Source: Psammoneis japonica (Eukaryota). From it: a stretch of DNA of 64,000 nt. Shown in pieces: positions 23,108 to 49,770 of the stretch. Position numbers and translations under genes: made by a program. The DNA lies in contig QPGO01000247.1 of the NCBI GenBank assembly GCA_008632985.1, positions 1 through 64,000 on the forward strand, in the 5' to 3' direction. The stretch's first letter is position 1, and each line of letters opens with the position of its first letter. Below the pieces are notes generated by a model. That model was given only the letters and a program-made list of their open reading frames with translations, made no database searches and had not been told where the DNA came from.

Positions 23108-24310
23108 GGACACACGGCATTTTGTCGCCAATTGCGACATTCCCATAAATGAATTGGACGATTTGTCGTGAATGATGCCCTTTGAGACAAAATTTCAATC
23201 GTTGGCGACAAATGAGACAAAATCATCATTTAATTGGCGATGGCGTGTCCTAAACACAAACGTTGTGTCAACTGCAGTGCTTGATGATGAATTTAACTTT
23301 CGGCGAAGACTGCACTTAACAATTGGTGTTTTGGCGATTTTGTCGCACGTACGACAAATTTTGTCGGATGCGACAAATTTTGTCGGACGTACGACAAATT
23401 TTGTCGTATCCGACAAACCCCGACAAACCCCGACAAACCCTGACAAACGCCGACAACGTACAACAAACGCCGACAAGAGCCGACAAGAGCCGACAAACGC
23501 CGACAGACGGACGTTTGCGACACTGTCTCCACGAGATTCGCCTGCCGCTCGCCAGACTGGCAGAGAGCTGCCGGTGGGCCCTAGCCACCTGCTGACAAAA
23601 GGTGCAGCACAGCAATGCATGCCGGTGCACTCCGTTCCACCATGTAGAAGCGTGCGACATTGTCCCGGCATTGACGAGAGTGTGACATTCGGGGACATGG
23701 AGCGATGATGCAAAATTTCGAAATCAAAAAATTGGAGACCACCGAGAGCGGCATGATCGTCGCTTTGCATCATCGTGCAAAAGAGACACAGTGTCAACGG
23801 AGACATCAGCGGTTGGCGTGTGCGGCGGGGGGTGTGGGTGTTTCGTTCGTGAGTCGTCGTGTCATGACGTGTCGTGACGTGACGTGTCGTGACGTGTCGT
23901 GTCGTGTCGTGTCGTGTCTTGTCGTGTCGTGTCGTGTCGTGTCTTGTCATGTCGTGTCGTGTCTTGTCGTGTCTTGTCGGATGCCGACAAATTTTGTCGG
24001 ACGTCCGACAAACCGACAAAATTTGTCTCGTGCGACAAATTTTGTCGCATCCGACAAATTTTGTCGGATGAAATTTCGTCGATGACATCGATCGCCAAAT
24101 TCTGTTAATTGCCCCACTCATTGAAACGACATCGCCAAAGTGCAGGTTGGTTGTTGATGACATGGGTCATTTTGTGACTCAGTTGAACAATGTTTCTGTC
24201 CCATTTATCGCCAACCCAGACATTTTGTCGCAATTCGCGTCTTTTCGCGACAAATCATCAATTCATTTTTTAAGAAAATGTCGCCAAATGCGACAAAATG
24301 CCGTGTGTCC
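23108..24310. mobile_element. Non-autonomous TIR element, PIF/Harbinger-like, with internal palindrome arrays
   Basis: Perfect TIR GGACACACGGCATTTTGTCGC at both ends; flanking 3-bp CAG duplication; many subterminal CGACAAA/TTTGTCG motifs. Confidence 0.85.
23853..23978. repeat. (GTCGT)n pentanucleotide microsatellite with variants
   Basis: Seen directly in the sequence. Confidence 0.95.
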
Positions 24311-27300
24311 CAGAGCAGATGTGTTGTTGTTGCATTCTGTGACTCAAAAATGTGCGCAGCTCAAAGCACACAATGACCTTGTTTCAAAGCAATGTCTGTG
24401 CTTGCTGCTTCCAAAAGCATGGGAGATGTCATCTTCTCTCAGTTGCTTCCTCATGCCACCTCACACAAGCAGCAACATCTGGAGCTCACTTGCTCTGTGC
24501 CACTTGTGGGTGATTTTTATGGCTTGCACAGCATGGAGGCAATGCATGGCTGTGCATGGCACAGCTTTGGCAGGGTCAGTCTTTTTTGGCATTTTCTTGA
24601 ATGTGCACTACGTTGATTGTTTTGTTGGGAAACATTGATTTGTGATGTGCATCTGAGAGATGTTTGAAATGTTCTGCACACAATTGCACTGGGTTTCTGT
24701 GAGGGGAAATCATTGCTGACATGAAGCAAAACATCAAAAAATCCTCAAGCTCCATGGTGCTCTTTGGGTGCCATTGTTGCAAAATCTAACAGGGAGGGCA
24801 TGACCCAGTCTCATGGCCACATGAGAGCAAGAATGCCTGACAAGTGAAAATGTGCTTGAGACTGGGTCATGCTCCCCATCAGATTTTGAGATGATGGTGT
24901 CCAAAAAGCACCATGGTGCCCTGCACTTCACCATGTTGTTTCATCATCAAAAGGACAGATTTCAGACCATTTTTGCCCACAAATCATCAATCCTGACTCA
25001 GAACTCCATTGGTGGCAGGCAAGAACCCGAAAGTTTTCCTTTCAACCAAGCAAATGTGCCAACAGTCTGTTTGTCTTCTGTTTGCTGTGCTCCTTGACTT
25101 CAGTGCACAATCCCTTGAGAAAACACTCTGTCTTGCAGCTGCAGGAGCAAGACACAACCTGATGTGTCTGCAAGACAATTGATTCCCTCTGGTGCAAATT
25201 CCGCACATTTTTTTGATGCATCCCAACACTTTCCAATGGAATCAGAGCTCTTCAAAAAGAAGCAAAATGTGGTTGACCACACCCCTGCAACAAAAAACAC
25301 GTCGACTCATCACCATCACGATGAGCATCACAATCAAGTCACAGCATCCATGCACCACATCATCTTCATGTCTGGCAGATGCCCACAGCAGCATCACAAG
25401 TTTGCATGGGCATTGGATGAGTTGAGAAAGAGGGGGAAGATCTGGTGGGTCTGGCACAAATGGAGCAGGAAACTGGACCCAGGGCAGCATCATTTCTGTG
25501 TCTGGACTGGCTCCATTCACGACTCTTGTTGGGCAACAACCAACTCTAATGGAAATTGCAAATCTGGCCGTTGATCTCACAGAGGATGAAAAGGTTGACC
25601 TTGTTGACAAGCAGAAGGGAATCACCAAAAAGCCAAGGCTTCCAGACCTGCTGCAGGCTAAAAACAAGAGCTTGTTGCTCAATTTGCTGTCCATCATTCA
25701 AACTTGGAAAGCAAACCAGCACATCAAGAACATTTTTGAAAGATGCAACCACTGAGTCAGTCTGGCAGCAAGCTCTGGACGAGTTCCGTGATGGCCCCAA
25801 TGCACCTGCTTGTGGCCATTTCAAACCATTGCTCTGGCAAACTCAAAAAATGGGGTGCAAATTGATGAGTGCTTGCCGGCATTGCCAACCTGCTCTGGAT
25901 CCAAAAAAAAACACCTGCTTCCCTGATTGACAATGTCAACTCTGGATGCAATTGAAAGCAGAGTGAGAACCACAGACCATTGAACAACTGGCCAAACAGA
26001 GTGCATCCAGAACATCTCTGCTCTCCTTGGCACTGATGCTCCTTGCATGTTGAGAGACCAACCCCTCATGTTTCTGTCGGCAAGCCACTCTGGCAATTTG
26101 TGGCAGTGTCCATGGTGAAAAAGCCTTGGTTGTCTTGGCATGACACAGATCACAAGTGCAACAATGACGCAAAAGTGTTTCTTGCCTTGGAGGATGAGAA
26201 ACCTCAACCCCGCCATTGTCAAAGCATCAAAGCTGCACCTCTGTGCAGATTGAGCAGATTGGCCTGTTCACAGCAGGAAAGTTGTGATTGAGAGTCAAGT
26301 GTTGAAACACAATTGAGAAGTGCACAGAGCTTCTGTATGACAACCGCCACATGTGCTTTCGCACACATCCCCTGTTTGGAGAGAGCCCCATGCACAAAGT
26401 GCATGAAAGTGCACATGGACTGTCTCATGCAGAGGCCCACAGTTGAGCGTGGTGTAAAGCAGCAGGTGAAGCACAAAAATGAAGGGGGCCAATGGTGCAG
26501 ACAGGTGAAGAGGAGGATGGTGGCTTGTTGGGCCAAAAGGGCTGGATGGGTTGAGAGATGGTTGGAGAGCCCAAGGCTCAATGTGCACACCTGTTCAGCC
26601 AGGGGGCAGCACAGACAGAATCCATTCATGCAAGAAAAGAAGCGAGCAAGAATGACCAAAATCCAAGCTTTGGATGTCAGAAGGTCACATCATTTGAGCC
26701 ATGACTGGTGGTTTTGGGTGCAGTTGAACTCAAGTTGTCATCTGTGATGCTCGGTCATTCTGGGCCGTCCCTGTGGAGAGCATCAGAGAGGCAAGAAAAA
26801 GGGTGCAATGCACGTGTGCTCATTGGCAGCTGACCTTTTCTGTTTGTTTGTGACATTTTCATTTGGCGCTCATGCAGTTGTTGCCCCATGACCAAATCAT
26901 TTTGTGTTTTGAATCTTGGCTCAAGTGCGACAATGGCTGCAACTGTCTGGCACCGTCTTTGTTCAAATCTGTGCAAAGTCATTTGATTGTTGCCACACAC
27001 ATTTCCACTCCATGATTTTTCCAAAATGTCAATGAAAAATTTTCATTTGATGTTTTCACATTGGATGTTGACATGCTGAGTTGTCAGGGCAATGTCCAAA
27101 GCAAGGCAACCTTAAATGCCCACTTGGTCCATTGTGTGAAGTGACTTGCACTGCAATTTGTTTGGCTCTCTGTGACACTTCTGCATGAATTTTCCAGTGG
27201 TCAACTTAATCAGGCTTTGGCAAAGTCCCAGTGATGTTGAGAGAGAGCAAGTTCCTGTGAATCCTCTTGGTCCGTTGCATGAAGCAACTTCCATCAAAAT

Positions 27301-29646
27301 TTTTTGTCCTTTTTGCAAGACTTCTGTTCCAGTTTCACCCTGCTGTCAACTTTTGATTTCTTCTTTTTGACTGATTTTGAAGGGGTGAGATTTGTGTGCC
27401 CCAGAGGCATGCAGGAGAAATCTCCCAAGCATCACAACAACTCCCTTTTGACTCAGTTCAAGAATGGCAGCACAGAGGAACGAGTGCATCAGACCTCTCT
27501 TCCAGTGATTCTGAATGCTCTGCTGGTGATGAAGAAGCGGCCACTTCTTCCCACCTGTCAAAGCACAGTGCACGGAACACACAGAGTCACTTTTTGCAGC
27601 AACTCTGTTTGCGAACGATGCACAGAAGGTGAGCAGCTGCCAGACACTTCCCTTTGTGTCATCATTCACACACCATGCAGCCACAAACAAAATTTTGAAA
27701 CTTGGGGTGCAATTTTGAATCTGTGCACCACTGGTTTCAAGTCAAGAGAAAACAAAAAGAAGGGGGGGGCAGATTGCAATGGTGTGCAAAGCAGTGCTGC
27801 CATGGTGAGTGCAGGCAAACACACACGACAAAAAAAAAAGAGCAAACATTGCAGAGCTGTGGCTCAGAGACAGACCAAGAATCTGAGCAAGCAGATGGCT
27901 GATGACCAAAAGGCTGGCAGAGACATTGTGATCAAGGTGAGAGATTGTGTCAAAGAAGGAGTTTTTCTGAGCATTGCACCCACACTTGGCGCAAAACAAC
28001 TGAACAAAACAGGCACGCTGCACAAAGACAAGTTTTGCTGTAAGTTTTGCTGGGGAATTGATGTCAAGCAGGATGCAAAACTGACACCAGCAGCATTGTG
28101 GTTTCCAATGACAAATGGGTGCTGTGAAATGAGCTTGAGAGGGTTGCCGGCAAGGGGCTCATGGCAAAGGGGGCAATTGCAAAGAAGAGAAAAAGCACAA
28201 AACTGCTCCAGCACTTCATGCCAAGCAACTCAAGCCCAGCAAAGGAAGGCACAGGAGATGATGCAAGAATCAAAGAAAGAGCAATGGATGGTTGCTGAGA
28301 GCCAACAAGTTCTTCAAGGAACACAAGTCATGGAGATCAAACAATGAGACATCACAAGTGAATGACTCAGTCAATGGGAACATTTGCACAGAACAAGTGC
28401 AGCCAGCCATGGAAAGCAAACAAGGGAAGGACTTGATGATTTGGGCATCGAGGAAGGGAGTCACATGGCGAGCTGCTTCAAGATCTGAAAACTGGAGTTG
28501 ATGGTGGTTTGGCAGATGAAAACCCACAAGTGGAATTTTGCAGTTGTTCAATGCAAGGATTCCACCTCAGCACTCCATTGCAGAAGCTGCACTTTGGACG
28601 GCTGCTGTCAAATTGAACATTTTGTGAGGGTGCAAACTTTTCGAATTTCATTGTGCTGACTGGGTTGATGAGATGATCTTGGTTTGCAAACTCAGGCATT
28701 TGTTGACAAACTTGGACACTCATCTGTGTGATTTGTGACAAATCTGACTGATTCAGCCACAAATGAATTCATGTGCTCAAGCTCACACATGTTGGAGGAG
28801 ACTGGGGTCTTGTCATCTGCCAATGGGAGGATTCACATGTTTGGGCCCCTGGTGAGGTGGAGTTGCGTGTCGCTTTTTTGCCACCTCCAACCCTTGTTCA
28901 CTTTGGCTTGCATTTTTGTGTGGTCTTCACCTCTGACATGAGAGACTGGACCACCGGCAGCATCTGCTTGGGCCCATCCAGCAGCCAACGAACAAGGTGA
29001 GGCCACTGTTTTGTGTCCCCTCGCCACAGGGCGTCGTGTCTTCACCGACATGCCCAAGCTGACCTCAACACACCCACTGTTCTGACACCCACTTCTGCCA
29101 AGCAAATCACTCCATTGCAACATGGCAATTAAAGTCAAAGGACACCACTGCAACACTCGACACATGGTTCACTCTAGACGTCCGCACTGGTTGACAAATC
29201 TGTTGATCCTTTTGGCCTGCGGCCACAGTCATGATTGTCCATCCTTCTGTCCTCCAGTCACTGATGTTCAAGTCATGAATCAAAATGCCATGAATGTGCT
29301 TACTTGTGAGTCCTTAAAGTGAATGGCCATTTGGTTTATGAGCTTCACTGCATCTTTCATTGAGTGCACCGTTGGCGCCATGTGTTGTGCTGTGACAGAA
29401 GACCGCACTGTCACCCTCTAGACCCATTTGATGGCCGCATCAACTCATTTCTGAATAGATTTAGACGATTGTTAACATTCAAAGATGAAGCAACGTTCAC
29501 AATGATGCTAGAGAAGCAGTGTTTGAAGGAGAAGCAATGTTCACAACAATTGTATTTCTCTGTGGTACGTGCCTGCTTGTTCCTGTCTCACGTTATTAGA
29601 TTATTCTACTGACCATGTTTTCACCATTTTGCCACTAGTTTCTTGA

Positions 29647-30426
29647 TTATTCTTCCTTGGCAACGCCTTCATACTTCTCAGTATCGACGACATCTTCGTT
29701 CAGACCTGCACGTAGCCAACGCATGACAAACCGTGTTTTCGGATCGTCTTCGCATGGGTCTATGAGTTTGAAAAACAGCTTGGCCCGGTACACACACCAA
29801 GCAAGTGTCCCTTTTGCAGGGCAATCATCTACTAGACGGCGAGGCCCAACAAGAGAATGAGGGTACGACGTCGTGAAGGCTCCCGCAGCCTTCACGAAGC
29901 CACTGTTGACAACCATGTGATGACGGAGCTTTCCACCGGGAAACGTCACGAGACTGCCCGCCTTGACAGGAACGGGTTGCTCCGTTCCTTCAACGACAAA
30001 GCTTGCATCCGGGTTAGTGTTCAAAAACAAAAGAACATTGTCTTGGTCTTCGTCTGTGGCTACGAATGAGCCATCCTCTTGAAGCACCCCGTCGAGGTGA
30101 GGTTCGGTTCCTCCCTCGGTCATGGTCTTCACCATGACGTACCTGCCCTCGTATTCGTCGCTGGTGGTACCATGGACAACGCGGTTCAAATTCTGAACCT
30201 GATCCTTCGACAGGAAAGAAGCAGTGTAATGATCGTTCCAATCGAAAGAGGCGGTCTTGGGGGACGACTTCTGATGAGTACGAAGGGATTCAATGTCTTC
30301 GTTTGAGAAGAAATTCTCAAAGACTTTGACACCGCCACTGGAATCAGAGGCACACGTAGGCTCGATGGCAACAACGGCCGACGGGATAGCCGCGGCAAGT
30401 AGGGGGGTGAGGTTCACAAACTTCAT
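29647..30426 (-). CDS. Secreted 2OG-Fe(II) oxygenase/cupin-like protein, 259 aa
   Basis: Intact ORF; signal peptide MKFVNLTPLLAAAIPSAVVA; VFENFFS.ED, HxD (PHLDG), LLFLN, GSLVTFPG..RH; paralog of 14048-14734. Confidence 0.85.
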   Translation of the reverse strand: MKFVNLTPLLAAAIPSAVVAIEPTCASDSSGGVKVFENFFSNEDIESLRTHQKSSPKTASFDWNDHYTASFLSKDQVQNLNRVVHGTTSDEYEGRYVMVKTMTEGGTEPHLDGVLQEDGSFVATDEDQDNVLLFLNTNPDASFVVEGTEQPVPVKAGSLVTFPGGKLRHHMVVNSGFVKAAGAFTTSYPHSLVGPRRLVDDCPAKGTLAWCVYRAKLFFKLIDPCEDDPKTRFVMRWLRAGLNEDVVDTEKYEGVAKEE

Positions 30427-30511
30427 TGTACAGCTCTAAATCGTGAAGATCCTGTGTCCTGTGTACATAGGCTATTGGTACTATGCATGGGATTGTCTCT
30501 GAGATCCCTGG

Positions 30512-30773
30512 CGCTACATTTTTCAGATCACTTGTCCGTCGATTTTTTTAATTAGGGGACCTCGATGAAAAATTGAAATATTTCAATCGTAGCCCGTGGT
30601 ATCTTTTCTACGAAGGCCGGATGGGTCGAGATCAGCTGAGACAGCACCATCATCGTGCGCATCCGCCTCCGTAGAAAAGATACCACGGGCTACGATTGAA
30701 ATATTTCAATTTTTCATCGAGGTCCCTTAANAATTAAAAAAATCGACGGACAAGTGAACTGAAAAATGTAGCG
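30512..30773. repeat. Long inverted repeat (fold-back), ~112-bp arms, ~36-bp spacer
   Basis: 30512-30623 is the reverse complement of 30660-30773 with few mismatches; one N at 30731. Confidence 0.93.
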
Positions 30774-31212
30774 GAGCCCAAACAGCGTTGGCGCCATTTT
30801 TAAATAATGACATCCAGTAATTAGGAATCAATAAAAATTTTATTAAAACATAAGATTACTAATGTCTATTTTGACTTACTATTGTATTTAGAGAGTGAGC
30901 GTTGGCTGGAGTAGAACGAAACGGAAGAAGTAGCGATTACACAAAAATAAATAATAGTGTGCAAAATTTGAGGTAGAACTTTAAAGTTATTCGTAACTAC
31001 CTACATGTTAATTTCATATCACCTTAATGTACGAAGATATGATATCCTAACTATTTTTTGATGTACTGTACTGGGCATTTTTTTACCTGGTGTGGGCAAA
31101 GCTTTTTGATTAACTCGACTCGAGCGAAGCGAGAGTCAGCACGCCAAAGTAACCCGGATTTGAAAATAGACACAAAACCGCTCTCACACTTGCGTGAAGC
31201 ACCCATGTCACC

Positions 31213-34200
31213 ATGGGCGGAACCGGCAGCGGCGGCAATAGAAAGGGGTCTGGCAGGCCAGTCTCCCACATTAAAGGACAAGGAACTATGTTTGGAGCCA
31301 AGTGTGATCGAAGTGAAGAATTGGCTCGAAAGCAGACTGCTCAGCCGGCGTTGATGGTTGCAGAAGCTCGGCGCAAGCGAGAAGCCGAGCAGCAGAAAGC
31401 AGCAGAAGCGGAGCTGCAAGCAGCCAGAACAAGGGAAAGACAAGAGGCTCTGGAGCAAGAACGTCTTAACAAACAGAAGAGAGAAGAGGAAAAACAAATT
31501 CAGGCACTGGAGAGGCTCACTGCAGCGGCAGATGTTGCGAGAAATGGGTCGGCACCAGGACAGGAGGAAGGCGACGACGACGACGAGGCATGTTTTAGCG
31601 ACAACGATGAAGACTGCAATGAAGATGCTGAAGATGACATCAGTGAAGCAATGAAAAAGAAGCATGAGTCGTCTCGTCATGAGCCACCTCCGGGCTCACG
31701 GCTGTCGAATTGCTTGGAAGGAGTCAAGAATGCCATCAACAGCTCGAGCAACGCAATCGCACGAAAGAACGGTGAGCAGTGGCATCCGCCCGATTTTTCA
31801 GCTGTGTCACTTCCAACTCTTGATCCATTTAATTGGGCAAAAGAGGCTGCATGGGTGTTTCATTTTGATCCATTTGGGCACAATGGGAAATCCACAAGAT
31901 TGGCTCTGAATGAGCACAAATGCATCCACTGCGGCAAGTGTGGCACTCTTGAGTCCAATGGGTGGAGTTGTCGGCCAATGCATCTTTATTTGATCACTTC
32001 TTGGGTTCTTCATCGGAGAATTCATTGCAGAGGAGAGGACAGGAACAAACAGGGGTGTGGCAGAACGTTTGCAGAGTTCCATCCGAAGTTTGTGGCCCAG
32101 TTGCCAAATGTTGTTTCCGAGCGATTTCCGTTTCTCGTCACCGCCAGTGGCATCGGCATGCATGAGTCAATGATGCACCAGTTTCTCCACTCATGTGTGA
32201 AGGGCATGCTGTTTGGCACATGTTGCTCCAGTGTCAATGAACCGAAGCACACGCAATGTTGGAAGGACAATCTTTCACATCTCGATGTGCTTTCCGACAA
32301 GGTGGATGGTCGGGCGGCTTTGTTGTCAGCTGCTGCAGCAACTGACACATTTGTCCCCCAGCCATTCTTTCCCTGTCAGTCTGTGGGTGAATGCAATGGT
32401 GCACTGTCAAAACCACGACTTTTAAAGACGCTCTTTCTACAGGTGCGTGTCGTCTCGGTTGTCACTGTCAACTGTGTGCTGTCATTCTCACCAGCTCTTT
32501 GCATTGCATCTTGTCAGGCAATGTCTGCTCTAGAGCCACATTTTCAAATCAGCCACCAATTGCACCCTGATGAGTCAGAGAGCAGTGATCATTCGTTCAA
32601 ATTCGCGAAGATGATGTCGGCGTCGAAACGATTCGGGAAAGCGTTCCTTGCAACATGTGACTCTGTGTCTCTTAGAGGCATGGTCACCTTCAATCGTTTG
32701 ACCCATGCCAAATCCAATGATGAGTTGAGGCTGCCATTTCAACAGTGCAAAACCGTGAGAATCAACAGCGGAGCTGCCGAACTGAAAAGGGTGGAAGGCG
32801 ATGGTGGTGGTGACCGTGGGTTGTGGCCCGAGGTTTTCAAAGAGCTCCTACAGAAAGTAAGACCTTGGCGAAAGAAGTCTCACAATGGTCTCCCTCAGGC
32901 TTCTCTGGCACGAGACAAATGTGTTGTGTTCTCAACTCACACTGAGGCTCAGAACTGGGCCCTTTCTCTTGCTACAAAAGTTGCTTCTCTCGAGGGTGAG
33001 ATTGTGTGCGGCATCGACTCGGAGTGCAACCTTGATGAAACACGGTCGACAACACGGGCAATCCAGTTGTGCTTTCCGTCTGAGCTCTATGACAAAGTCG
33101 TGATTCTTGACTTGACAGAAATGGGTCTTTTTGATGCATCCGACGTGCCGCCAGCTTTGAAGCACCTTTTGGAAAATAAAAAGCTCGTCCCTGCTGCCGC
33201 GAATGTCTCATTCGACATTGCAAGATGCCAGGCTCTTGGAATCAACATGCTTCGTGCAATTGAAACAATGGAGTTAGCGAAACAGCTGGAGCCGAGTCAT
33301 CCAGAGGGATGTGGCATGCAGAAACTCTGCGCTCGACTTCTTGAGCTTTACGTTGACAAGTTTGGCCAGAACGCAGACTGGAGGGGATTGAAAGACAGTG
33401 ACAGCTTAAAGGAGTGTGCGGCATTGGATCCACATTTACATTTGCAGCTTCGTGTGATGCTGCAGTCACGGATTGCAGATGCAAGGCGGACAGGGAGCAT
33501 GTCAGCATCTGCTCTGTCGGATGGCAAGAACGTGCACCTGACATGTCGCAATCAAGTTTGTGCCACGGGTGAGCTTGTGTTTGTGGGTGGCACAGGTGGT
33601 GAGATTCGGAAGTGGGGTCAAATGACTGTTGGGAAAAACAACAGCATTGTGAAGATCAATCGTGTCATTGTGCGAAGTGTCAGACCGGCGTTCAGCCACA
33701 ATGTTGCTGCAGAGGAGCACACAGCCGGCATCACGGGTTGGAGCCATGCAGAAGTTCTGCTGCATGATGAATTTGAGAAACGCAAAACCTTGGAAGGCAT
33801 GGCAGTTGCATGGCCGACCGATCGTGTTCGTGTGCATTTAGAACCAGCGGCAACTGTCGACTCCGTTGAACCTTCAGCTCGTTCTGATGATGACATGGAT
33901 GATTCGGCAGACGGGGCACCAAGAGACGAACCAGAAGAAGTGGTGGGTGCTGGCGATGGTGGCAATGACATGAACAACATGGTGGATGATTGCTTGGGCG
34001 ATGATGCCACAGGAGAAGCAGTGAATGGCATTGACTCGGAGGCACCGACTGCTGCGGCTGATGCAAATGCGAATGAGTGGCTCTGTGATGCTGGTGACTT
34101 TGAGGACGAGAATGACACTGTTGACCTTCCGAGAACACGTCAATCAATGGATCGGTTCCACGCATTCGACGACATTCCGTCCTCGTCAAATCCCAAAACC

Positions 34201-35773
34201 AAAAATGTGTTGAAGTTGGTTCGTCGATTGGTGATTCAAGCCACCATTGAGTTTGATGCAGATGGCTGGCATGGCATGACGAGATTCCTTGCCGACCATC
34301 GTGGCATTACTTCCATGGAGGACACACTTGACCACTTCTACTTCAACCAAGAATTTTGGCACCAGCGAGTCCAGACACACCCCCCCACCACAAAGAAAGG
34401 AGCTGACAACATTCGTGCTGTCCGGGACATGGTGCAATCTAATCCTGTCCTGAAAGAGTGCTGGAGTTCCAACCTGGAACAATGCTTCGACCGGTTGGAA
34501 GAAATGCACCAGAAAGGTCAACTCGAGGAATCTCGAGATGTGGCAATGCATCAGTGGGACGGCAAGGACAAGTGTGGGTTGAATCTTTGGCTGCATCGAC
34601 GGGGATCAAATCGGTCGGAGAATTTGCATCAGAAGATGCGGGTGGCGTTTGGACCCCATGGCGTTGGTGCAAAGGTGGGGCACTTCTTGCTTCTCCTTGT
34701 CACGTGTTGATGCAATGTCAATGCTGGGGTGCGACGCAGTGGTTTCCATGACTTTGGCATGCCGCATCATGACATTGTTGATCGAGTGCAACTTCGTGTG
34801 ACAAAGTTGTTTGCATGCGATCCATTTCCCCATCACACCAACCAGTTGTTGTTTGAGCCAGCAAAGGATTTTGTTGCGGTTGGTGTGGGGCCATTAAATT
34901 GTGATGCCAAGTTTGTTGAGCACCAAGACTCACCGGATCCCAAGCTCACAGGTGACTTGAAGTTTCTTGCTGGTGAGTGGCACCGTGCATTTCTTGACAA
35001 TGTCGCTCTTGCAAATCTCACAGGAACGTTGCTCGGTCGCACTGGAACACATGAAACTGAGAGGCCCCCTGTTGCACATTAGCCATCCCAATGAAAAGCG
35101 AACACACAATGATTTTCTAAAGGATCACCCAAAACCCACGTGGAAAACGTGGGTTGATTTGGCGAGCTTGTTCAAAATGAAAGCAGACTGTGTCATGATT
35201 TTTCCCAAGCTCCCTTCCATGCTCAAAAGCTGCTGCAACAAGTGGAAAGTCACACAGGAGTTGGTGATGCTCAAGGATTCTATTGGAGTGGACTGCTGTG
35301 GACTGTCAAAACAATTTGCTCGGCCAAGTCGGGAAGAACAGAACAAAAATCCGGCTGCTGTTTTTCAGAAAAATTCCAGCAAGCCCACCTTGGAGACAGC
35401 AGCAAACGTGTTGGAGCAGACCATCACAGAGGCTGCATTTGACAATGATGGTGCCATTTCCACCAACCCAATGCCAGTGGCACCATTGGTTGCTCCCACT
35501 CAAGCCACCTGCATTGTCAGCGCCGACAAGGATGGACGCGGGGCAGACCGACGACGCTGCAGCGCCGCTCCTTTTGGATGCCCCAACCTTGCCAAGGACT
35601 GTTCATGGCGGGGATGGCAACATTGCTCATTGGTCAAACGCAAGAGTGTTCCAGTGAATGTGCCTGACTCAGAAGGGGAACGGAAAAGGTTGAAACGTGA
35701 GTGCGACAAAAAGCGGTTGTCAGAGAGAATGGCAGAACTCAGAAAGAAGAAGGGAGCAGCAAGCAACAAGTGA
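31213..35773 (+). pseudogene. Inactivated DUF6729-like putative transposase containing a DnaQ/WRN-type 3'-5' exonuclease domain; introns 32443-32517 and probably 34973-35045
   Basis: CxxC...H.R..C zinc motif, SSDHSFKFAK, exonuclease motifs CGIDSE / NVSFD / CAALD, DRFH, RGSNRSENLHQKM; in-frame TGA at 34708; GT donors with ctcac branch points. Confidence 0.7.
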
Positions 35774-36177
35774 GCAGCAACAACAACACTTCTGTCACAC
35801 CACAATGTCATCACATTTTATCCCTGCAGACCAATGTGGACTGCCCTTGCCGGCATTGGGCCATTGCTCTCATCGCACCGCAGGTCATCTTTGGACCGCC
35901 GAGTTTTTTGAGAAGCAGTTGGAAGTGCTGTGTGTGAATTGACTGATTTGACTCAAATCTCAAATGAAAATGACTCTCCTTGTGTGTGATGTAACCTGAA
36001 CCTCATGTGCGGCACAAACTGATGACTCCCAGACGTCATCAGTGCCTTGTGTGCGGCACAAATTTTATGCCGCACATGAGGACAACGCATTTAATGAATG
36101 ACCGTAAATGTCCATGGGGTCCTTGTGTGCGGCATCCCACACTGTTTGACGACCTGCCCTGTGCTGTGCTGTGCTGC

Positions 36178-36268
36178 ACTCTCCATCGTGAGTCCATGCG
36201 TCGACCGTTCTTCGCATGCACGCTCGCACGCACCCGAAGGTCGCCTCACAGACTCTCGCGGAAGCAAG
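36178..36268. repeat. Dispersed 91-bp repeat, inverted copy of 62538-62628
   Basis: Direct alignment. Confidence 0.92.
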
Positions 36269-36280
36269 GCTCTCGGTCTG

Positions 36281-37093
36281 CAGGTGAACCGAGCCGGATC
36301 GGATCGCCAGATCGACTCCTTCATGACCCATTAAAACATCAGTCCATCGAGTCAAAAAGTCGATCCGTGGCCTTCGTGGGACTGATCCGCCATCTCGGAT
36401 CGGACGGTCTTTGGAGCAAAACATTTTGCTCCGAAGACCGTCCGATCCGAAAATCCGGATCGGATGTCGGCTCGAATTTGGAAGATTCCGTGCCGTCATC
36501 ATGACAATGGCGCAACATCACACGATTGTGACACAGGGTGGCACAACATTCAGCCATGAGGGCACAGAACTTCCTTGGCATTGCAGCCTTGCTCTTCCCA
36601 TGCTTGAAATGGAGATGAAAAAGGTCGCATGGCAACAGAATGGCTTGTCAAACCGACAATGCCGTAAAGATTTGTTGGAGAAACATTGAACAAGCAAAAC
36701 AACAAGTGTTTGTCACGCAATTCGAAATTTCAATGCGAAAACATGGTGTCAGTTTCTGAGTTGCAAAAGTGATGGCTTTTTCTTCCTTGGTGTGCTGCAA
36801 ACACTGAGTGACAATGATGCTCAATGATGCGGTCAAGTGAGCATGCAAAGCAGCAACGTCAGCATGGTTCTGTCATCACATTGTCTCGTTGTGACAAGAT
36901 GTGAAGCATCACAGCCACACTCTCTCTGTTGTTCGCTGCTGCATTTCAGTGCTTTGTTGTTCTTGAGAATTTGGAATCTTGAAACTTGCGTCGTTTTGCG
37001 ACTCATCAAAATGTCGAATCCTGTCTGCGATCCGATCCGGTTCCACCTGTCGACTAACGGAATTCTGACGTGATCCGATCCGGCGATCCGATC
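36281..37093. mobile_element. Probable non-autonomous TIR element with GATCC/GGATC-rich ends; right end abuts the Ngaro-like element
   Basis: caggtgaaccgagccggatcggatcgcc at 36281 versus gatccgatccggttccacctg (~37029-37050) and gatccggcgatccgatcc (~37076-37093). Confidence 0.5.
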
Positions 37094-37348
37094 CTCCTCG
37101 CACCCAAGTTTAGATGGAGACGTGCTGTGCGACGCAAGACTCCCCAACTGACCAGACCTTGGACTCATGCCTCTTCCAGAAGCGGGCACTTCTGGACCAA
37201 GATGGCCGGTCACAGTGACCAGTCAAATCTGTCAGCTGTTTGCTTTTCACTTTTCCATCTTTGTTGAGACAGGAACCCTGATCAACGTGACTGGATCATT
37301 CCAAAGCACTGGAAAAGCTTCTTTTTGCTCCCTCTCTCGCTCTCGCTC

Positions 37349-40214
37349 ATGTCTGACTGCTTCTCTTCCGGGCTCGACGACGCCACTTTTGTCAACCTCG
37401 CTCGCACGCTCGAGATGGATGTTGTTTCTCCATTCTCGGCGCAGTCTCCTTCGTCGTCTGCTCCTCGGGCCCCGCCGTCTGCGATGGGTCATCAAGGGGG
37501 GCTGGCGGATTTGAACCCTTCCCTCGGGGGGTTAAATCTGGGTGGTGTGACCGATGACATCGGACATTCGGACATTGAGCGAGTGGAATTGGGGGAAGTC
37601 TCTTCCCCTGACCCGGGTGACGGGTTCCAGTCCCAGGTGGGACTCCGTGTGACATTGGGCCCGTAGAATTCTACGTGCGAGCTCCGTAGTACGAGAATTT
37701 AATTGATGGACACATTTGTCTTCAACATCAAATAAACTGCCAAGTTTGTGGCACAATTATGCCTCTTGCCACTCGACGTTTTTGCAAATGCGCCTGCCCT
37801 GCGCGATTCTTAAGACATTGTAGAATCGCGCTGTAACAAAAAATGTCAAAAGTTGTTGGACGGATCGCTCAATAAGTGCACCGTAAAATGACACAAAATG
37901 TCGAAAAAATCACGTAGAAATCTACGTGCGCGACATGCGACGTGATTCAAAAAACTGTCGATGTCACAGTTCAGCAGTGCGAGGTCCCACCTAGACCTGG
38001 AACGCGTCGGGTTCGGCTTTCAATGCCCTGCCATCTAGAGCAGGCGAGGGTGCGGAAGAGCGTGCACCCCGTGTTGATTTCTTCGCGCCAAAAGATGAGG
38101 GAGCACCCCGAGGTGCCTCAGGAGCGAAGGAGGAAGGTGCGTCTCCTTCGTCTGATGCACCTCGTTTTCATGTCGTTTGGATGGAGGGCACCGATGACTC
38201 TCGCTGCATGGGGGTTGTCGGAGGAGGTGCCACTTTTTGTTTCAAGAAAGCCACGGACTGCAAGGTCAAGCACAAAGGCTCCAAAAAGGTCCTCCCTTCT
38301 AGCGGCATGGTGTTGATTCTGAAGACACCAGACACAGCGTTTTGCCAACCAACGTTGGACGGATCGTTTGTGTCGGCGGATTTGTTGGTAAAATGGGAAT
38401 CCACTGCTGATGCCATGGCGGGATGGTGCCAGAAATTCCTTGTTCTGTCAAACAGCGAAACCAACTGTCCAACCGAAGACGAGTTCGGTGCCTCCTTGAA
38501 GGAGCACAAGGAAGCAGCCGCTTGCAAGACCCCAGCCAAGAGGAAAGACCCCCTTGACGAAAGTTTCCCGGGCCCATCGTTGGCCCGATTCTTGCCTCAT
38601 AAGCCAGTGATCTCCACCACCCCATCCCAGTTCCTTGCAGCGAACAAGAGCCCGGCTGCCTTGGCTCGCGTGGTCCAATCCCTTGAGCGGAGCATGATGG
38701 AGACGGGCGAGATGGTCACTGACTTGGGATGCAAGGCCTGCGGTCGGTTCAAGGAGACGGACTCACTTGTCAACGTGCTGAGCAGAAAGCTGGAGCAGCT
38801 TGATGCTTCCCTCGGTTCACCTCCACCTGAATTTGACCAGCGCGTGGAGGCTCCGACAATTTGGGGTGCACTCGCCAACCTGACAACCGTCGATGTTTCA
38901 AGTCGACACTCCTGGGACTTCTCGTCCGAGTTGTCGTGCATGGAGAGCAGCATTCGGGCTGGTTCCAACACACTGGCATCGAACGTTAACGCCACAGTTC
39001 AGGGTTTATGAGCCCAAATGTCTGGGCTGGCTGCGAAGCGGGACATGGACTCTCTAAGAGCCGGGGTGTTGAGAGTGTGCAATCAGCTCGTGGTTAGAGT
39101 CCAAAACCTGGAGAACTCCGGAGTTCCTGGCACGACAGGCCTGGGTGGGGCCTTGGGGACTGGAAACTCTGGATCACTTGAAGACCAGGTTCGAGACCTC
39201 GGCCAAGCTGTGAATGAGTTGAAGTCTGAGTCTGACTCATCGGCAATCAAGTTCTCGGGAGTCGGAGCATCGTCCTTTGGGGAGTGCCAGGCCTGGATGG
39301 TCCAGCACTTCTCGTCAAGAGTGCATGGTTGTCTCACGGACGCCAACCTGCTCTTGGACCAGATTGTGGGCACCGAGCCCGCAGCACTCCACCATTTTTT
39401 GGCAGGCTTGTCAAAGCGCATGGATTTGAAGATTGGCACAGAAGAGGACGCGAGAACTCTGGCAAGCTTCCAGTGCAGCATGCCGAGGATCCTCGATTCG
39501 GGCTCGGCGAAAGGTGCCCAGTCGCCTGGTCTGCATCCTTCATTCCTGGACAAGGTCCCGACGCACGACCACTGGACGACTGGGTCAATGGGGACCAAAC
39601 ACTTCATCATGGAGAAGATTGGCACAATCGAGACGAACACGTTGAGTGACATTGCTCAGAGAATCCCAGGCGGATCGTTCGAGGGACAGGTGGTTCAAGA
39701 TGCGCTGTCTAAGTTGGTGGCCTTCGTTCGCGGATTGATCCAATTTATGGACGAAACACACGAAAACTTAGTCCAGCTGAGCAAGTTCTCACACAAGCAG
39801 GCGTGGTCTTTGTCATCAAAGCTGGTCCACCGTATTTTCGACGACCTCAACCAGGTTCGGTCTGGGGTTTTTACTTCAATCACGGGCACGGATCCGGACG
39901 CAGTGTGCAGCCAAATCCTTTGGGTGGTTTTTCGAGTGCAGGATGTGATGGCGGAGCACACGGCCCCAAACTTTAGGGACCACCCATCGATGGCCTCAGA
40001 GCATGTCAAATTCCTTGCAACAAATTCCGGATTCGAAGCAGCAACGGCACTTCAAGCTGCAGTGGCTATGTTGACCGACAAGGCAAAGAACGCGGGGACG
40101 GAGGCAAAGTCGGCGCAGGCACGAGTGGATGCGGCCCATCAGGAGGTCAACAAGTTAAAGACGGAGCTGAAGGAGGTGAACAGGCGTCTCAAGGCGTTAG
40201 AAACCAAGAAATGA
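37349..40214 (+). pseudogene. ORF1 (gag-like) of the YR retroelement, interrupted by MITE C and by an in-frame TGA at 39009
   Basis: Removing 37619-38012 fuses frames 37349 and 38181; Cys/His cluster C...C....C...H; coiled-coil C-terminus. Confidence 0.8.
37619..38008 (+). mobile_element. MITE copy C (390 bp; same TIRs, different interior), 4-bp TSD gggt, TpA retained
   Basis: TIRs; TSD at 37615-37618 and 38009-38012; excision restores the gag frame. Confidence 0.95.
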
Positions 40215-42663
40215 AACCCAATGGGGGAGGAGTCACCACCGGAGGAAAAGACAGGGCTTGTCATTCGCGGTCGCAAAGCATTTTCTTTCCACGGATCTTG
40301 CCTGATTACATCTGCCAGTCCCCCCACTTGGCTTCTGGCCCTGAGGTGCTCCGAATGGCCTCGTGTTGTCTTGTGTTGCGGTGATGATCCACCATCCCCG
40401 TTGACCAGAGTTCTAAAACTAGTGACGTCGTGTTCATCTCTGGAGACCCTGGATTTTTGGAAAGGATCTCACGGTTGGAATGCAAATCTCCGATGTGCTT
40501 GGTTCCGGTCGGACAGTTTTCAAGACGTAGCTTGAAGGGACTGCACCACTTGTCTCATGCCACCTTCACCCATGCGGGAGTTGGAGGTGTTGCGACATTT
40601 CACACGTCCTTTTTGAGCATTGGTGCATCGCTCCCGGACTCGACTCGAGGGTTAGACCGAACCATCGGCCACATTGTCGACTGCAAGTTGGAGGGACTCC
40701 CGACTTCCCCGGATCCCTCGGGTTTGGTCTATGAGGAGAACGACCGGTTGAGTCCTCAGAACACTGGACGACCCGTCTTGTGCCAATCGCATCGTTCATC
40801 AACGGGGTGGGTCCTGCGGAAATTGAGCGGGGATGATCTCCTTGCCGCGTGGGATTTTCCTCTTCGATTTCGGACCCAGGATCTGTTGGATTTGACATCT
40901 GGTGACAGCTTGAGATTGCCAGTGCCTCTCAATCTTCTCACCACTGTCACGGACCATTTTATTGCACTGCGCTCAAAGGGCATGTCCCACGCCTCACTTC
41001 CGGTCCCTGGGCCCACATCAAGCATGGTCTTTGCCCCGGCAACTGCCACATGGTTGCCTGGTTTGGGGCAACACCTGTCGCATGACTGGGCAGATCTGAC
41101 TCTCATTGCGGCCAAGGCGGCGAAAGGGGATTCCGCCCTCCCGCCATTTCGGCTGTGGGACAAGCGTGTCACCCTCTTGTTCCCAATGTTTGGACCGGTG
41201 CTTCCAGCTCTTTGGGTGCCAGCCCTGCGGTGGTGGCGTCGGCAGCTCACGCACTTGTTCTTGGCACATTTGCGGAGGTGTCATGGCCCTGGATGGGCAC
41301 TTCGCCCAGCAAACTGGCGCCTCCAGTTTGGGGACTCATTGTTGAGTCATCGGGGGGGGCCATGTCGAGACCCACCGCTCCCTCCCTTGTTGTTGGACGG
41401 CAACCTCGGCGCGGATGTTCTCACTCAAACCCTGGCATGTTCGTGGTGGAACTGGGGCCAGGGGTCTTCCCTTTTCTTTTGGCGCTGGCCCTCGTCCGAA
41501 CAACGTCGGGCCGCTCGGGATGGGCTCCCCATCTTCGTACGAGGAACCCTCCCCAGGAATCGCCAGCGGCAATGCATCCGGGGCTCAACCAGCGAAGTTC
41601 AGCGGATGGCAACCAAAATTCAGAAGGTCCGGGACCATGGGTGCATCAAGGTTGGTCCAGTGACAAGTCTTGCCGACCATTTCTGGGCACCTGAGGTGGT
41701 GTCTCTGATCCCAGGTCCCGACGGGAGGATGGAGGAGGTCGTGGAAGACATCAGGATGGTGTGCAACGGCACCTCGTCTGTGCTCAATGACGCCCTCTGG
41801 GCCCCTTCCTTTTTCCTTCCTGCTGCGGCATCGGTGTTGGGGTGCATGACCGACGCAACCTTTTCCATTGATTTGGACCTTGGGGACATGTTCCCAAACT
41901 TTTTCATGGACCCTCGAATTCGCCCATACGCCGGAATTGACCTGTTGCTGTTGCGCACTCATCTCCCCCGTCCGGTGTCTAATGAACCTCCAATCGGCGT
42001 GGAGCGTTGGAACCGTCTCTTTATGGGGATGAAACCTGGCCCTTGCAACGTGGTGCGGTCCCATCACTGGGCGGACGAGGTGGCTCGGGGAGACCCCAGC
42101 TGCCCGGGAAACCCAATGGGGTTTGACAAAGTGTTGCTCAACCTGCCAGGGGATCCTGACTGCAAGGTCCAGGACCCTCATGTCATCAAGTGGAACTCAA
42201 CCTTGGGGATCATTGCCGGAGACATTAAGACCTTTGTTGATGACTTGAGAGGCATGGGTGCCAGTGAAGAACAAGCCTGGCAGGTGGGCCATCAAATGGC
42301 GTCCAGGCTCCAGTGCTTCGGCCTCCAGAATGCTCCTCGAAAGGTCCACCCCCCATCGCAGTGAGAGACGGGTGCCTGGGCGGGGGCAATTTTTCGCGTG
42401 CTTGGTGCAGAAGTCATGCAATCACTCTCACAGGCCAAGTGGGACAAGGCCAAGGGCATGATCGAGACTCTTTTGAGTCACTTTGACGGGATGGACGAGC
42501 TCGCCACCCCTGACTTCGACTTCAAGGATCTCGAGAGGAAACGGGGATTTCTGGTTCATGCAGCCATGACTTGCCCTTTCCCAACCCCCTTTCTTAAAGG
42601 GATTCACCTGACTTTGGACAGTTGGCATCCGAACCGCAAGGCAGATGGATGGGCCATGTCGGG

Positions 42664-42940
42664 TGACAGGATTTGAACAGGATTTAGGTGCGCGCGAAGC
42701 ATCGCGCGCTGTTTAGTTTACCGCGCACAGTTTTGTGTGCTTTAGTTCCGCGCGTTCACGCGCGATGTAGTTTGCTTTCGAGCCACAAGGCTCACAAGAA
42801 CAACAACAGTAGCCCGATTGTGCCGACTCACACGTCTTTCGGCTCCTGTGACGGTCTCTGAGCGGAGACTCATCTGCTGTTTAGACAGCAGCAAGGAGTT
42901 GTTGTTTGAATTCTTGCCATTTGCCTTCATTTTTCTGTCA
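42664..42940 (+). repeat. 5' LTR
   Basis: Matches 49494-49770 with 10 mismatches, all transitions. Confidence 0.97.
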
Positions 42941-43880
42941 GATTAACAGTCTTGCTCATTGTCAACCCATTGAGCAACCGCCATCGTCGTCGTTGATTTA
43001 CCAACGATGCCATTTTTAATTCTGCGTGGACCTCCGTACACATTCTACATACATCGGCAAGTCTACGCGCATTCAATGCCAGGGCATCGGCAGGAAGTTA
43101 ACGTCACCGTCAAGTCTCCTTACCGCTGGATGTCTGGATTGATCATGCCACCTTTGATCACTGAAGACATGCATTCAACGGTCATGTCCAAGTCTGTCCT
43201 TGATCCTCATCCCTTGATGCACCTGTTCATCGGTTGACGGTCAAGAACCCTGCACATTCAAGGATCTTCGTCTCTGACGACATGTGCACACACACATGTC
43301 TTCACGGCCAAGAACCTGTGCCCACTCTTCGGACTGCGGTTTTGCTGCCACTCTACAAGCACACCGAGTCCATTGCACCTGATCTGCCCCGGACTGCTGG
43401 TGCTCTACAGTTCTGCTGGGTCCACGAGGACAACTGTGAGAGCAAGCAGCCGTGATCACAGCCTGCGTTGGGGCGAGGGTGCTTTCCCGCGTTTGTTCGT
43501 TCGTCCACAGCGCCCAACGCCTACGTCAACTGGCCAGCCTGATCGGGAAATCCAACCGACATAAAATGAGAACGGTTCGGGGGTCTTGTCCACCTCTGGT
43601 CAGCTTGCCTGCAGGGGTTTACAACCCGCTACTCCGCTCGTAAGCAACCCAAAGCGCCACCAGCTGCGGGTTCGGACGTGCCGGCACAACTCTACGGACC
43701 GGACAGGAAGTTTAGCACTCAACAACGAACGGGATAACAAAGCCCGGCGACTTCTGATTTTAAGACAGTTCAAGATTTCAAGTCAAGTCCATTTCAAGTC
43801 AAGTCTGTTCTCACCCAAGTTTCGAGTCTACCTTCGCTTCCCAACCAGAATTGATTGTCCTGACACCATTTTTGTCTGCC

Positions 43881-46800
43881 ATGGTTCTCACTCGTCAGCA
43901 ACAAACCGATGGTTTCGAGCACGTGGTTGGAACCGTGCTTGCCCAAGGTGCTGGGAGTCCTCTTCGTTTGGCTTTGGCCCAAGACGGCACGGACTCACAT
44001 CAGGAACTGTTCACGTTCATGCCATCCCAAATCGACTCGCTTGAGCACGACAACGGCACTAATGTGATCCCTTTGCCCCGTGGTTATAAGAACATGTTAG
44101 CAGCACCAGTCAGTCTGTACATTGTTAAAGCACACAAAGGTCTTGACGTTGCCAACGACTCCTCTTTGTTCACGCATGACGAGTTCCTTGCCTGCCGCCT
44201 CAGCCCCGACTGCATGTCTTCTGTGTCCATCGGCAGCTCACCCCTTGCACCTCCACATGTCACCAACCCGACCAAGGCACGCGACCCGGTGCGGGACTTC
44301 AAGCGAGGCATCAAGCGTGATCCCACCGCTTTCACGGCTCTCAAATCCGACAAGCAGTGGCACACTTGGCACACCTCACTTGTGGCACAAGCCCGTGCCC
44401 AAGACGTCGAGTGCATTCTAGACTCGTCGTACAAACCGACCAGCCCCGAAGACAAACTGCTCTTTGCTGAACAGCAAAAGCACATGTTCGCCGTCTTCGA
44501 ATGCATCCTTCTCACCGACAAGGGCAAGGCTCTCATTCGCGAAAATGTGGGGTCTTCTGATGCACAGACCGTCTGCCGCTCCTTGTCTGAGTGCGCGCTT
44601 GCCTCCACCCGCGCATCTGTCGAGTCCTCCACCCTGCTCACGTACCTCACCACCGCGCGTCTTGGTGATGGCACTTGGAAAGGTCCGACCCACGGGTTCA
44701 TCCTTCATTGGCAAGATCAGTTGCGCAAGTGCGAGGCACTCATCCCGGCCAATGACCACTTCTCTGAAGGACAGAAGCGCGTCATGCTCGAGAATGCCGT
44801 GCACCCTGTCGAGGAACTCCGTGCTGTCAAGAGCCAAGCTGATCAGCATCGTACGCAGAGTGGCAAGAGCCTCACATGTGATCAATGCTGTGGCTTGCTC
44901 CTCTCCGCGGCAGCTCAGTGCGACAGCACGTTTCAACCCAAGACGACACCTCGAGCTCCCCGACGCGCCACACACGCACCCGATGTCTGCTCCGAGGAAC
45001 CGTCCGACGATGTGTTCTACGACATTGACAGCGACGTTGACGTCCTTCAAGCCAATGCTGCCTGCACCCGCGGTCCCAGCCTCACCGGTGTCCAATGGAG
45101 ACGTCTCCCTCCCGACCACCAACGGCTCTGGGATTCGTTGCCCGATTCCTCCAAGGCGATCATCCTTGAGCATTCTCGTCCACCTCCCCGCAACCCGCGA
45201 GCCAGCAACTGCCATGAGTCTGTTACGGCCAACCTTCACGACCAACGCCTTGGGAGTGACGGTGATGTCCACTTCTCCAACATGACTCCTGCTGACTCTG
45301 GTGACTCCGCCCCACATGTGGACGCCACTTCGGACAATCCCATCCTGGCGCACCTCACCAAGCGCAAGCCACTGCCACCCGGTGATCTGCAACGTCTGTT
45401 GTCTCCTAACCAAGCCCCCAATGCCAGTCGACCGGGGCCATCCGCCGCTTCCTCTACCCCGCCAGCTTCTGCAGATAACATGGAACTTAACGGCCGCACT
45501 TGCCGCCGCGTTGACAACCACAATGTCATTTGCTCTGCCTCTGCTCATCGATCCACACGCACTGGCGCTCCAGTCGATCGTGGGGCCAACGGCGGCATTG
45601 CTGGCGACGACGTTCGCGTCATTGCACGCACCTCTCGCCAAGTCGACGTTCAGGGCATTGACGATCATCAATTGGTGGACATCCCCATTGTCACCGCTGG
45701 TGCCGTTGTTGAGACCCAGCGTGGTCCTGTCATCGCCATCCTCCATCAGTGCGCATGCACGGGAAAGGGCAAGACCATCCATTCCTGCGGCCAGCTCGAA
45801 TGGTGCAAACAGGATGTCAACGATCGCTCTGTCAAGGTGCCCAACGGCTTGCAACGTGTTGCCACTCCTGATGGCTATGTCATCCCCATTGACATCAAGG
45901 CTGGCCTGCCTTATGTTGCCATGCGACCTTACACTGACGCCGAATGGGACACCCTGCCCCATGTCATCCTCACCGGTGATGACACATGGGACCCTTCCGT
46001 CCTCGATCACTCTGTCACTGACGACGACCAGTGGCACGACGCGATCTCTGACCCACAGGACGATCCCACTGCCAACCTGTTTGACGAATGCGGCAACTGC
46101 CGTCATCGTGTCGTTGTCAATGAGACCATCTTGTCCGCTTCCTTGTCTGCCGATCACGCGTCCGCCCTCGATGATCACCTCATTCCGAACGACGACGTGT
46201 TCTACGAGTGTCATCTGCATGCGATTGCCCCCCAGGGCGATGACGTTCCACCTCCGGAGCGCACTGTACAGCCCAAGGACCCCCCCTTCGAGTCTCTTCG
46301 GCCTTGCTTTGGCTTCCTGCCTGCCGATACGGTCCGCCGTGCTTTTGACTGCACCACGCAGTGCGCCCGCATGCCCGCCGGCACACACCTTCGCAAGGCC
46401 TACAAATCACCCAACCCCGCCCTTAATGTGCACCGCCGCAACGAGCCCATCGCCACTGACACCGTTTGTGCCAACACCCCGGCCGTCGACTCTGGTTGCA
46501 CCAGCGCCCAACTGTTTGTTGGCACCGAGTCTACCGTCACTGACGTCTACGGCACTAAGACGGACAAAGAGTTTGTCAACACACTCGAGGATCAGATCCG
46601 TGCATGTGGTGCCCCATCCAAACTCATTAGCGACCGTGCTCAAGTTGAGATCAGCAACAAAGTGCTCAGGATCCTGCGCGCCCTCTTCATCTCTAGCTGG
46701 CAAAGTGAGCCTCACCAGCAACACCAAAACTTTGCCGAGCGTCGACACCAGACCGTGAAGCGCATGGCGAACACTGTCATGGATCGTTTTGGTTCGCCCG

Positions 46801-49546: not shown

Positions 49547-49770
49547 TTTACCATGCACAGTTTTGTGTGCTTTAGTTCCGCGCGTTCACGCGCGATGCAG
49601 TTTGCTTTCGAGCCACAAGGCTCACAAGAATAACAACAGTAGCCCGATTGTGCCAACTTACACGTCTTTCGGCTCCTGCAACGGTCTCTGAGCGGAGACT
49701 CATCTGCTGTTTAGACAGCAGTAAGGAGTTGTTGTTTGAATTCTTGCCATTTGCCTTCATTTTTCTGTCA
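49494..49770 (+). repeat. 3' LTR
   Basis: Preceded by the PPT and followed by the TSD. Confidence 0.97.

Follow-up and report, generated by a model that had tools for sequence, protein, structure and literature searches.

The window, by which we mean the whole 64,000-nucleotide stretch of DNA analysed here, holds two copies of a 92-nt repeat that have fared very differently. The copy in its interior has no TpA, and the copy near a predicted gene has kept all three of its own. The question that this locus raises is thus what decides which DNA is mutated: where a copy lies, the fact that it is repeated, or how long it and its source have been exposed.

An inverted repeat pair differing at TpA and CpG

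The pair and its immediate surroundings consist of the following features.

36177..36268, + strand: copy A of the 92-nt repeat, which forms the 5' end of a dispersed high-copy family; 0 TpA, CpA at 36195, 36249 and 36265, decayed CpG at 36216, 36217 and 36220
62538..62629, - strand: copy B of the 92-nt repeat, fragment of the same high-copy family; TpA at 62540, 62556 and 62610, 14 CpG
62551..62616, + strand: hairpin in copy B with perfect 9-bp arms GAGTCTATG (62551-62559) and CATAGACTC (62608-62616), holding two of the three TpA
62900..63608, + strand: predicted conserved gene beside copy B; exon 1 62900-63354, GT..AG intron 63355-63451, exon 2 63452-63608

The two copies form an inverted pair, identical at 85 of 92 positions (92%, blastn E 4.5e-33); homology is confined to these 92 nt, and the flanks of either copy do not align. 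Seven positions differ. At 36195, 36249 and 36265, a C in copy A stands for the T of a TpA in copy B; at 36216, 36217 and 36220, copy A reads CA/TG where copy B has CpG; and at 36243 the copies are separated by a G/T transversion. The initial annotation had described the loss of three TpA from the interior copy (at gtcTatg, ctcaTag and aagTaag) together with CpG decay, and both are found, the former at exactly these three sites. By count, copy B contains three TpA and 14 CpG, against no TpA and 12 CpG in copy A. The six TpA positions account for three of the seven differences (hypergeometric P = 0.005), and all three TpA-site changes in copy A lie on one strand, an outcome with a chance of 1 in 4. 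Outside the pyrimidine-purine (YR) dinucleotides, that is TA, CA, TG and CG, there is not a single difference at 42 positions; the pair thus has no power to date the copies and does not give their relative age. Degenerate patterns of the repeat core found just two copies in the window and no locus in either metagenome or viral contigs.

The ATG at 62900 follows the end of copy B by 271 bp, in agreement with the distance of about 270 bp from a host gene that had been proposed. Among 1.84 billion representatives, 152 are homologues of the first exon of this gene at E <= 0.001, and judged by its sequence it is a real conserved gene; Pfam has no family for it, nor for eight of its homologues. A further suggestion, that ctgtactg motifs near copy B correspond to ctgtgctg near copy A, does not stand as homology. 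CTGTACTG (at 62631 and 62691) and CTGTGCTG (at 36159, 36164 and 36169) are both on the + strand; with the repeat copies inverted, the motifs face opposite ways relative to the repeat, in flanks that share no alignment. CTGTGC is moreover abundant in the window, with 40+40 occurrences.

Some long-read base callers can err at modified T and C, and the contrast between the copies could then be an artefact of assembly or of base calling at modified bases. We consider this extremely unlikely. A k-mer-based contig of a public run (depth 52.9) agrees with 35900-36152 at every position, and 67% of the sampled words of 58000-64000 are present in run X1; the public run, which may be from the same sample as the assembly, is independent of the assembler only.

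The TpA and CpG landscape of the window

The two copies lie in very different surroundings, and the window is divided by sharp boundaries into domains of contrasting composition.

1001..29200: deeply mutated domain; TpA o/e 0.01-0.09, CpG o/e mostly 0.06-0.3, CA/TG o/e 1.5-2.35
13400..14800, - strand: TpA-normal patch with a 245-aa ORF (14048-14785) paralogous to the 262-aa ORF below
29300..31250, - strand: TpA-normal patch with an intact 262-aa ORF (29647-30435) and a TpA-rich upstream region
31300..37550: domain with copy A; TpA 5.6/kb, o/e ~0.1 over 32-37 kb, CpG partly depleted (o/e 0.5-0.9)
38-62 kb: TpA o/e ~0.2, largely two Copia elements
62400..64000: TpA-normal domain; ~45 TpA/kb, TpA/ApT 0.82, TpA o/e ~0.6, beginning ~140 bp before copy B

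In the deepest domain, every window over 1001-13000 and 15001-23000 has a TpA o/e of at most 0.09, with CA and TG o/e of 1.5-2.35; the exceptions inside 1001-29200 are the gene patch at 13400-14800 and CpG-rich tandem repeats at 23-24 kb. At ~62400, TpA steps from at most 4 to ~10 per 200 bp, and it is normal throughout 62400-64000, including the intron and the stretch between copy B and the gene. The mutator is thus clearly not uniform across the window: the flanks of copy A carry 4-10 TpA/kb and those of copy B, which are non-coding, 30-50/kb. Regional targeting is supported by the step at ~62400 and by the coincidence of TpA-normal patches with the intact ORFs 14048-14785 and 29647-30435 and the gene at 62900.

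This landscape bears directly on the idea that mutation pressure was equal at the two copies and that selection made the difference, copy B being an exapted promoter or 5' element whose hairpin is held by purifying selection. Its place 271 bp upstream of an ATG would suit such a role, and so would its folding: copy B folds better than shuffled sequences (z -3.66 on the + strand, with 0 of 200 shuffles as good), and an inverted repeat of at least 9 bp, as in its perfect stem, is matched by 19 of 2000 shuffles. However, the whole of 62400-64000 is TpA-normal, so that constraint on 92 nt does not explain the domain, and an Rfam search with the repeat gave no family match. Selection on the hairpin is thus an improbable account of the contrast.

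Loss of TpA has reshaped the coding appearance of the mutated DNA. In 1001-29200, TAA occurs at 2.1 per kb against 11.0 in normal DNA, and TAG at 0.5 against 11.7. TGA persists there (26.5 per kb), and many frames show long open stretches, most of which are probably not genes. The TpA that remain in this domain favour TTAA (27 of 82, against 14 of 243 in normal DNA, taken as 62400-64000 plus the gene patches), and ATAN and NTAT contexts are almost absent among them. They are mostly TTAA plus YTAA/TTAR, and those of normal DNA are led by GTAC, GTAG and ATAA. Such a context bias suggests either a flanking-base preference of the mutator or the regeneration of TpA in these contexts. Runs tests for strand clustering of CA versus TG changes in five domains gave z of -1.1 to +2.5, that is, no clustering.

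Several further features of the window were recorded. The ORFs at 14048-14785 (-) and 29647-30435 (-), both located in TpA-normal patches within the mutated domain, are intact paralogues of 245 and 262 aa that share 68% identity in a DNA alignment of 578 bp and have starts that resemble signal peptides. Neither has a Pfam match, and a word-based search of the protein collection returned no homologue; their Atlas features resemble those of viral 2OG-Fe(II) oxygenase-like clusters (score 0.91, a weak match). Just upstream of the 245-aa ORF there is a 356-bp tandem duplicate (14847-15202 and 15223-15578) that is 99.7% identical, its sole difference being at a CpG. An element at 23107-24311 has 43-nt inverted-repeat ends and 10- and 15-nt tandem repeats of ACAAACCCCG and GTCGTG type, with a CpG o/e of 1.32 amid the CpG-poor domain. 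On the + strand, 31198-34710 is an open frame of 1170 aa with a 3'-5' exonuclease domain (DNA_pol_A_exo1, E 4.4e-10), along which TpA o/e declines from 0.35 to 0.07; it may be a mobile-element gene, part of it open merely through erased stop codons. Finally, the stretch between the end of the second Copia LTR and the TpA-normal domain (61777-62400) is intermediate, with 11 TpA in 620 bp, and could reflect spreading of the mutator past the element or an older fragment.

Mutation after integration of Copia elements

Two retrotransposons, identified as Copia by RVT_2 domains together with LTR pairs, occupy much of the region between the two repeat copies.

42663..49770, + strand: Copia element 1; LTRs 42663-42940 and 49493-49770, with 10 LTR differences, all in TA/CG/CA/TG dinucleotides
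54951..61776, - strand: Copia element 2, with an N gap at 57009-57892; LTRs 54951-55238 and 61489-61776, with 14 LTR differences, 13 in YR dinucleotides, including four CA<->TG swaps

The closest named matches to their reverse transcriptase are only from the diatom Fragilaria crotonensis, at 56-59%. The two LTRs of an element are identical at integration, and those of both elements now differ with the spectrum of the mutator, which establishes that the process acts on DNA after integration. All 24 differences of the two LTR pairs combined are transitions, and 23 of the 24 lie in TA/CG/CA/TG dinucleotides. They include seven sites with TA against CA/TG, six of CpG type and five CA<->TG swaps, each of them one ancestral dinucleotide that was changed on opposite strands in the two LTRs. 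Outside YR dinucleotides, there is a single difference in 288 positions. The loss of TpA per LTR copy amounts to 25-32% in element 1 and 33-71% in element 2, the range depending on how the swaps are assigned, against a loss of CpG of 7-11%. Judged by the LTR pairs, TpA sites outpace the background in mutation by about two orders of magnitude.

A high-copy family and the direction of change

Contigs of the public run, which are k-mer based, were compared over 35900-36600, where the exact single-copy contig has a depth of ~50. Against this value, summed contig depth reaches 5,500-11,600 over 36164-36211 and ~2,000 over 36212-36380. Contigs with unlike flanks have loose ends at 36175-36177, and the left boundary of the family falls at 36176/36177. 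The pile-up of depth and the loose ends together indicate that the 92 nt are the 5' end of a high-copy dispersed element. In most copies this element runs past 36268 and is longer than 92 nt, and copy B is thus a shortened fragment of it.

At the three decayed CpG sites, the state of copy B is carried by 1044, 1103 and 1425 of a contig depth of 1542. The A-like state is common to ~30% of the depth at 36216/36217 and to ~8% at 36220, and CpG is the family majority in the read contigs at 36216-36220 and at 36309. Around copy A, 40 variant rows are listed, of which 35 represent transitions within YR dinucleotides; in 15 of the 40, other copies have TpA against CA/TG in the window, none shows the reverse, and adjacent rows may represent swaps.

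That TpA was lost in the interior copy is well supported as a direction, and at the three sites themselves we infer the polarity from several lines. First of all, the two stem TpA of copy B complete a perfect 9-bp inverted repeat that is broken in copy A, where TG on the hairpin strand at both sites gives G.T wobbles. Second, most of the contig depth carries the state of copy B at the three CpG sites. Third, a TpA o/e of 0.01-0.09 with CA/TG at 1.5-2.35, as in the deepest domain, arises solely by TpA loss. Finally, the count of 15 against 0 among the variant rows listed points the same way. In the opposite polarity, CpA would be ancestral and copy B would have acquired its three TpA by C->T changes, whether RIP-like or through ordinary GC->AT bias. 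Among the variant rows listed, none has a T at the three sites, as a family with a CpA majority would predict if such absence were informative; none is in fact listed at 36195, 36249, 36265 or 36243, and because the listing leaves out nine rows as well as variants less than 31 nt from a contig end, this is uninformative either way. Two changes would, on the other hand, have to build a perfect hairpin by chance, and none of the 14 CpG of copy B has undergone a C->T change, the three informative ones being in the majority state. RIP indices are furthermore the inverse of those of RIP everywhere in the window. An ancestral CpA at these sites is thus very unlikely.

Two observations concern the DNA beside copy A. 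Over 35900-36073, the public run has a further contig (depth 41, against 53 for the exact one) with differences at 13 of 174 positions; of the eight differences listed, six show TpA against CA/TG in the window. This contig represents either the other allele, in which case mutation would be recent or ongoing, or a paralogue that has been mutated less. At 36384-36461 there is a 78-nt near-perfect palindrome, for which miRNA-precursor models stayed below threshold (best 42.6 bits against a threshold of 100) and which is probably a plain hairpin of the repeat.

Location, repetition or age

We put at about an even chance the reading that the contrast between copies A and B is due to location, with the domain or its chromatin state, and neither repetition nor sequence, as the target. 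A region-restricted mutator acting at the DNA level would turn TpA into CpA or TpG, with decay of CpG to TpG/CpA going along with the loss of TpA. It would work on the transposon-rich part of the window and halt within 100-200 bp of genes. Copy A, as a high-copy member inside the mutated regime, would in this way have lost all three TpA and three CpG, and copy B, a piece of that family situated 140 bp within the TpA-normal domain of a conserved gene, would have lost none. We infer that the changes were made in place and that the targeting has a basis in chromatin.

Two observations would fit independence from repetition. Copy B belongs to a family with a depth above 5,000 and is nevertheless unmutated, and the stretch beside copy A at 35900-36043 is TpA-poor although its summed contig depth is low (94-186, against ~50 per contig). 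The initial annotation had suggested that position or chromatin, not repetition as such, directs the mutator, and had named a difference in age as the alternative. The landscape of the window supports a regional effect, but the pair alone cannot separate position from age: it has just three TpA sites, and if TpA were lost to the extent of the younger LTR pair (25-32% per copy), a young copy B would retain its full set in roughly one case out of three wherever it lay.

Age or lineage is a real contender, though we hold it to be the somewhat less probable account. Copy A would be old, or copied from a mutated master, and copy B a recent fragment, or one derived from an unmutated master, that was never exposed. 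The divergence of the pair outside YR dinucleotides (0 of 42 positions) gives no power against this. A second repeat in the window speaks for it.

37618..38012, strand not assigned: repeat copy rich in TpA (38/kb, against 2-6/kb in the flanks); the paralogues 20862-21264 and 21640-22043 read CA/TG at its TpA sites

This copy is TpA-rich inside depleted flanks, the opposite of a pure position effect, and at seven of the seven sites where it has TpA, both arms at 20.9-22.0 kb are in the derived state, which implies that mutated states can be inherited from a source copy. Copy A may likewise have inherited its CpA from an already mutated source, and since its state at 36216/36217 is found in ~30% of contig depth, some of its states may be those of a subfamily. 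On the other hand, the flanks of copy B are TpA-normal non-coding DNA; intergenic DNA of the host has the age of the genome itself, and the mutator thus does not act there whatever the age of copy B. Copy B is also a shortened 92-nt piece of a longer element, which resembles a remnant rather than a fresh insertion, and the state of copy A at 36220 occurs in only ~8% of the depth, which suggests a private change made in place. There are thus two informative repeat contrasts, one of which (A and B) tracks its flanks while the other (37.6 kb against 21 kb) does not. Location is the reading that we favour for copies A and B, and residence time or lineage also shapes TpA content.

Relation to known mutational systems

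The signature in the window matches, by analogy, the kind of TpA hypermutation recently described in Bigelowiella natans (Mettrop et al., bioRxiv 10.64898/2026.01.13.699255), with CpG decay added; this preprint was the only report of TpA-directed hypermutation found in the literature, and a term search of Maumus et al. 2009 (PMC2806351) returned no relevant passage on such hypermutation. On the evidence of mutation-accumulation lines in the preprint, hypermutation is almost exclusively A:T->G:C, with those changes all on TpA, and affects two integrated viral regions at ~1000 times background, the NCLDV region being single-copy. The preprint also describes clusters of 1-kb windows that are poor in TpA and rich in CpA+TpG, and an excess of reverse transcriptase and transposase domains among coding sequences low in TpA. 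An ADAT2-like deaminase, perhaps guided by RNA or by epigenetic state, is proposed there; the chemistry in the window would, on that proposal, be adenine-deaminase-like.

The two systems share several features. TpA is converted to CpA/TpG by transitions (three of the three TpA of copy B, with seven TA against CA/TG sites and five swaps in the LTR pairs, whose 24 differences are all transitions); the action is regional, with large rate contrasts and with the loss of TpA coupled to a gain of CpA+TpG; and mobile DNA is targeted (Copia here) with genes spared, as in the TpA-normal patches at intact ORFs. That the target need not be repeated may hold here too, the stretch at 35900-36043 with its depth of 94-186 being TpA-poor. 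There are also differences from what is described there. First, mutation in B. natans is almost exclusively at TpA, while here there is a CpG component (three of the seven pair differences, six LTR sites, and CpG o/e down to 0.06-0.3). Second, depletion is far deeper here, at ~3 TpA/kb against 3.3% among the dinucleotides of the NCLDV region. Third, the targets here are Copia elements and an unclassified repeat, and there NCLDV and virophage DNA. The source is also probably another organism than that strain: for three intact ORFs of the window, the protein collection holds nothing identical, and the best named match to the Copia reverse transcriptase is that of Fragilaria crotonensis, at 59%. 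Finally, the rate in B. natans comes from mutation-accumulation lines, and here it is indirect, through the loss of 25-71% of TpA per LTR copy against one difference in 288 non-YR positions.

Repeat-induced point mutation (RIP), known from Neurospora and other fungi, resembles the process in being a defence-like mutagenesis by dinucleotide-specific transitions, with degraded transposons and a scar in composition as its outcome. It makes TpA from CpA, however, the opposite of the direction here. As given in PMC7296669, RIP is called at TpA/ApT above 2 and (CpA+TpG)/(ApC+GpT) below 0.7, and the mutated domains have values of 0.04-0.22 and 1.37-1.95. RIP furthermore needs a duplicated sequence, of at least 100 bp by the same source, and mutates both copies, whereas only 92 nt are shared here and copy B is unmutated. 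For its opposite direction and the shortness of the match against that 100-bp length, we rejected RIP as the comparison. The contrast that the initial annotation drew with pairing-triggered RIP is thus weak, as the direction is reversed and the shared 92 nt are too short by that measure.

The transposons of diatoms are CpG-methylated. Decay by deamination of methylated CpG produces CpG->TpG/CpA changes like those in the same domains of the window, where CpG o/e falls to 0.06-0.3 in the oldest part. Such decay explains the CpG half only, and the loss of TpA is the faster of the two (25-71% against 7-11% per LTR copy).

Editing by ADAR or APOBEC provides a further likeness, in the hypermutation scars left on retroelements and in the preference of ADAR for a U on the 5' side of the A that it edits (a point cited in 10.64898/2026.01.13.699255). 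Edits made on RNA or during reverse transcription, however, leave the two LTRs identical, while here the LTRs differ and either strand is changed; DNA other than retroelements is affected here as well. RNA editing before integration was considered and rejected, since it cannot explain the 10 and 14 LTR-LTR differences, which have the same spectrum.

Implications

TpA-directed hypermutation of invading DNA is known from one preprint of 2026 and one chlorarachniophyte. The window presents the same signature at saturation on Copia elements, with gene boundaries sharp enough to be mapped, a repeat family with members on both sides of a domain boundary, and LTR pairs that serve as an internal clock of TpA mutation. 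For annotation, the removal of TAA and TAG creates long false ORFs that gene finders will call.

We tentatively propose, with somewhat less than even confidence, that the window comes from a second eukaryotic lineage, one whose Copia elements are most like those of diatoms, in which a DNA-level defence erases TpA and CpG almost completely from silenced domains. Such a defence would prefer RTAY-like contexts and leave TTAA, would stop within 100-200 bp of genes, and would spare the promoter member of a family of more than 100 copies. If this is true, its targets would be chosen by chromatin state rather than by homology or copy number.
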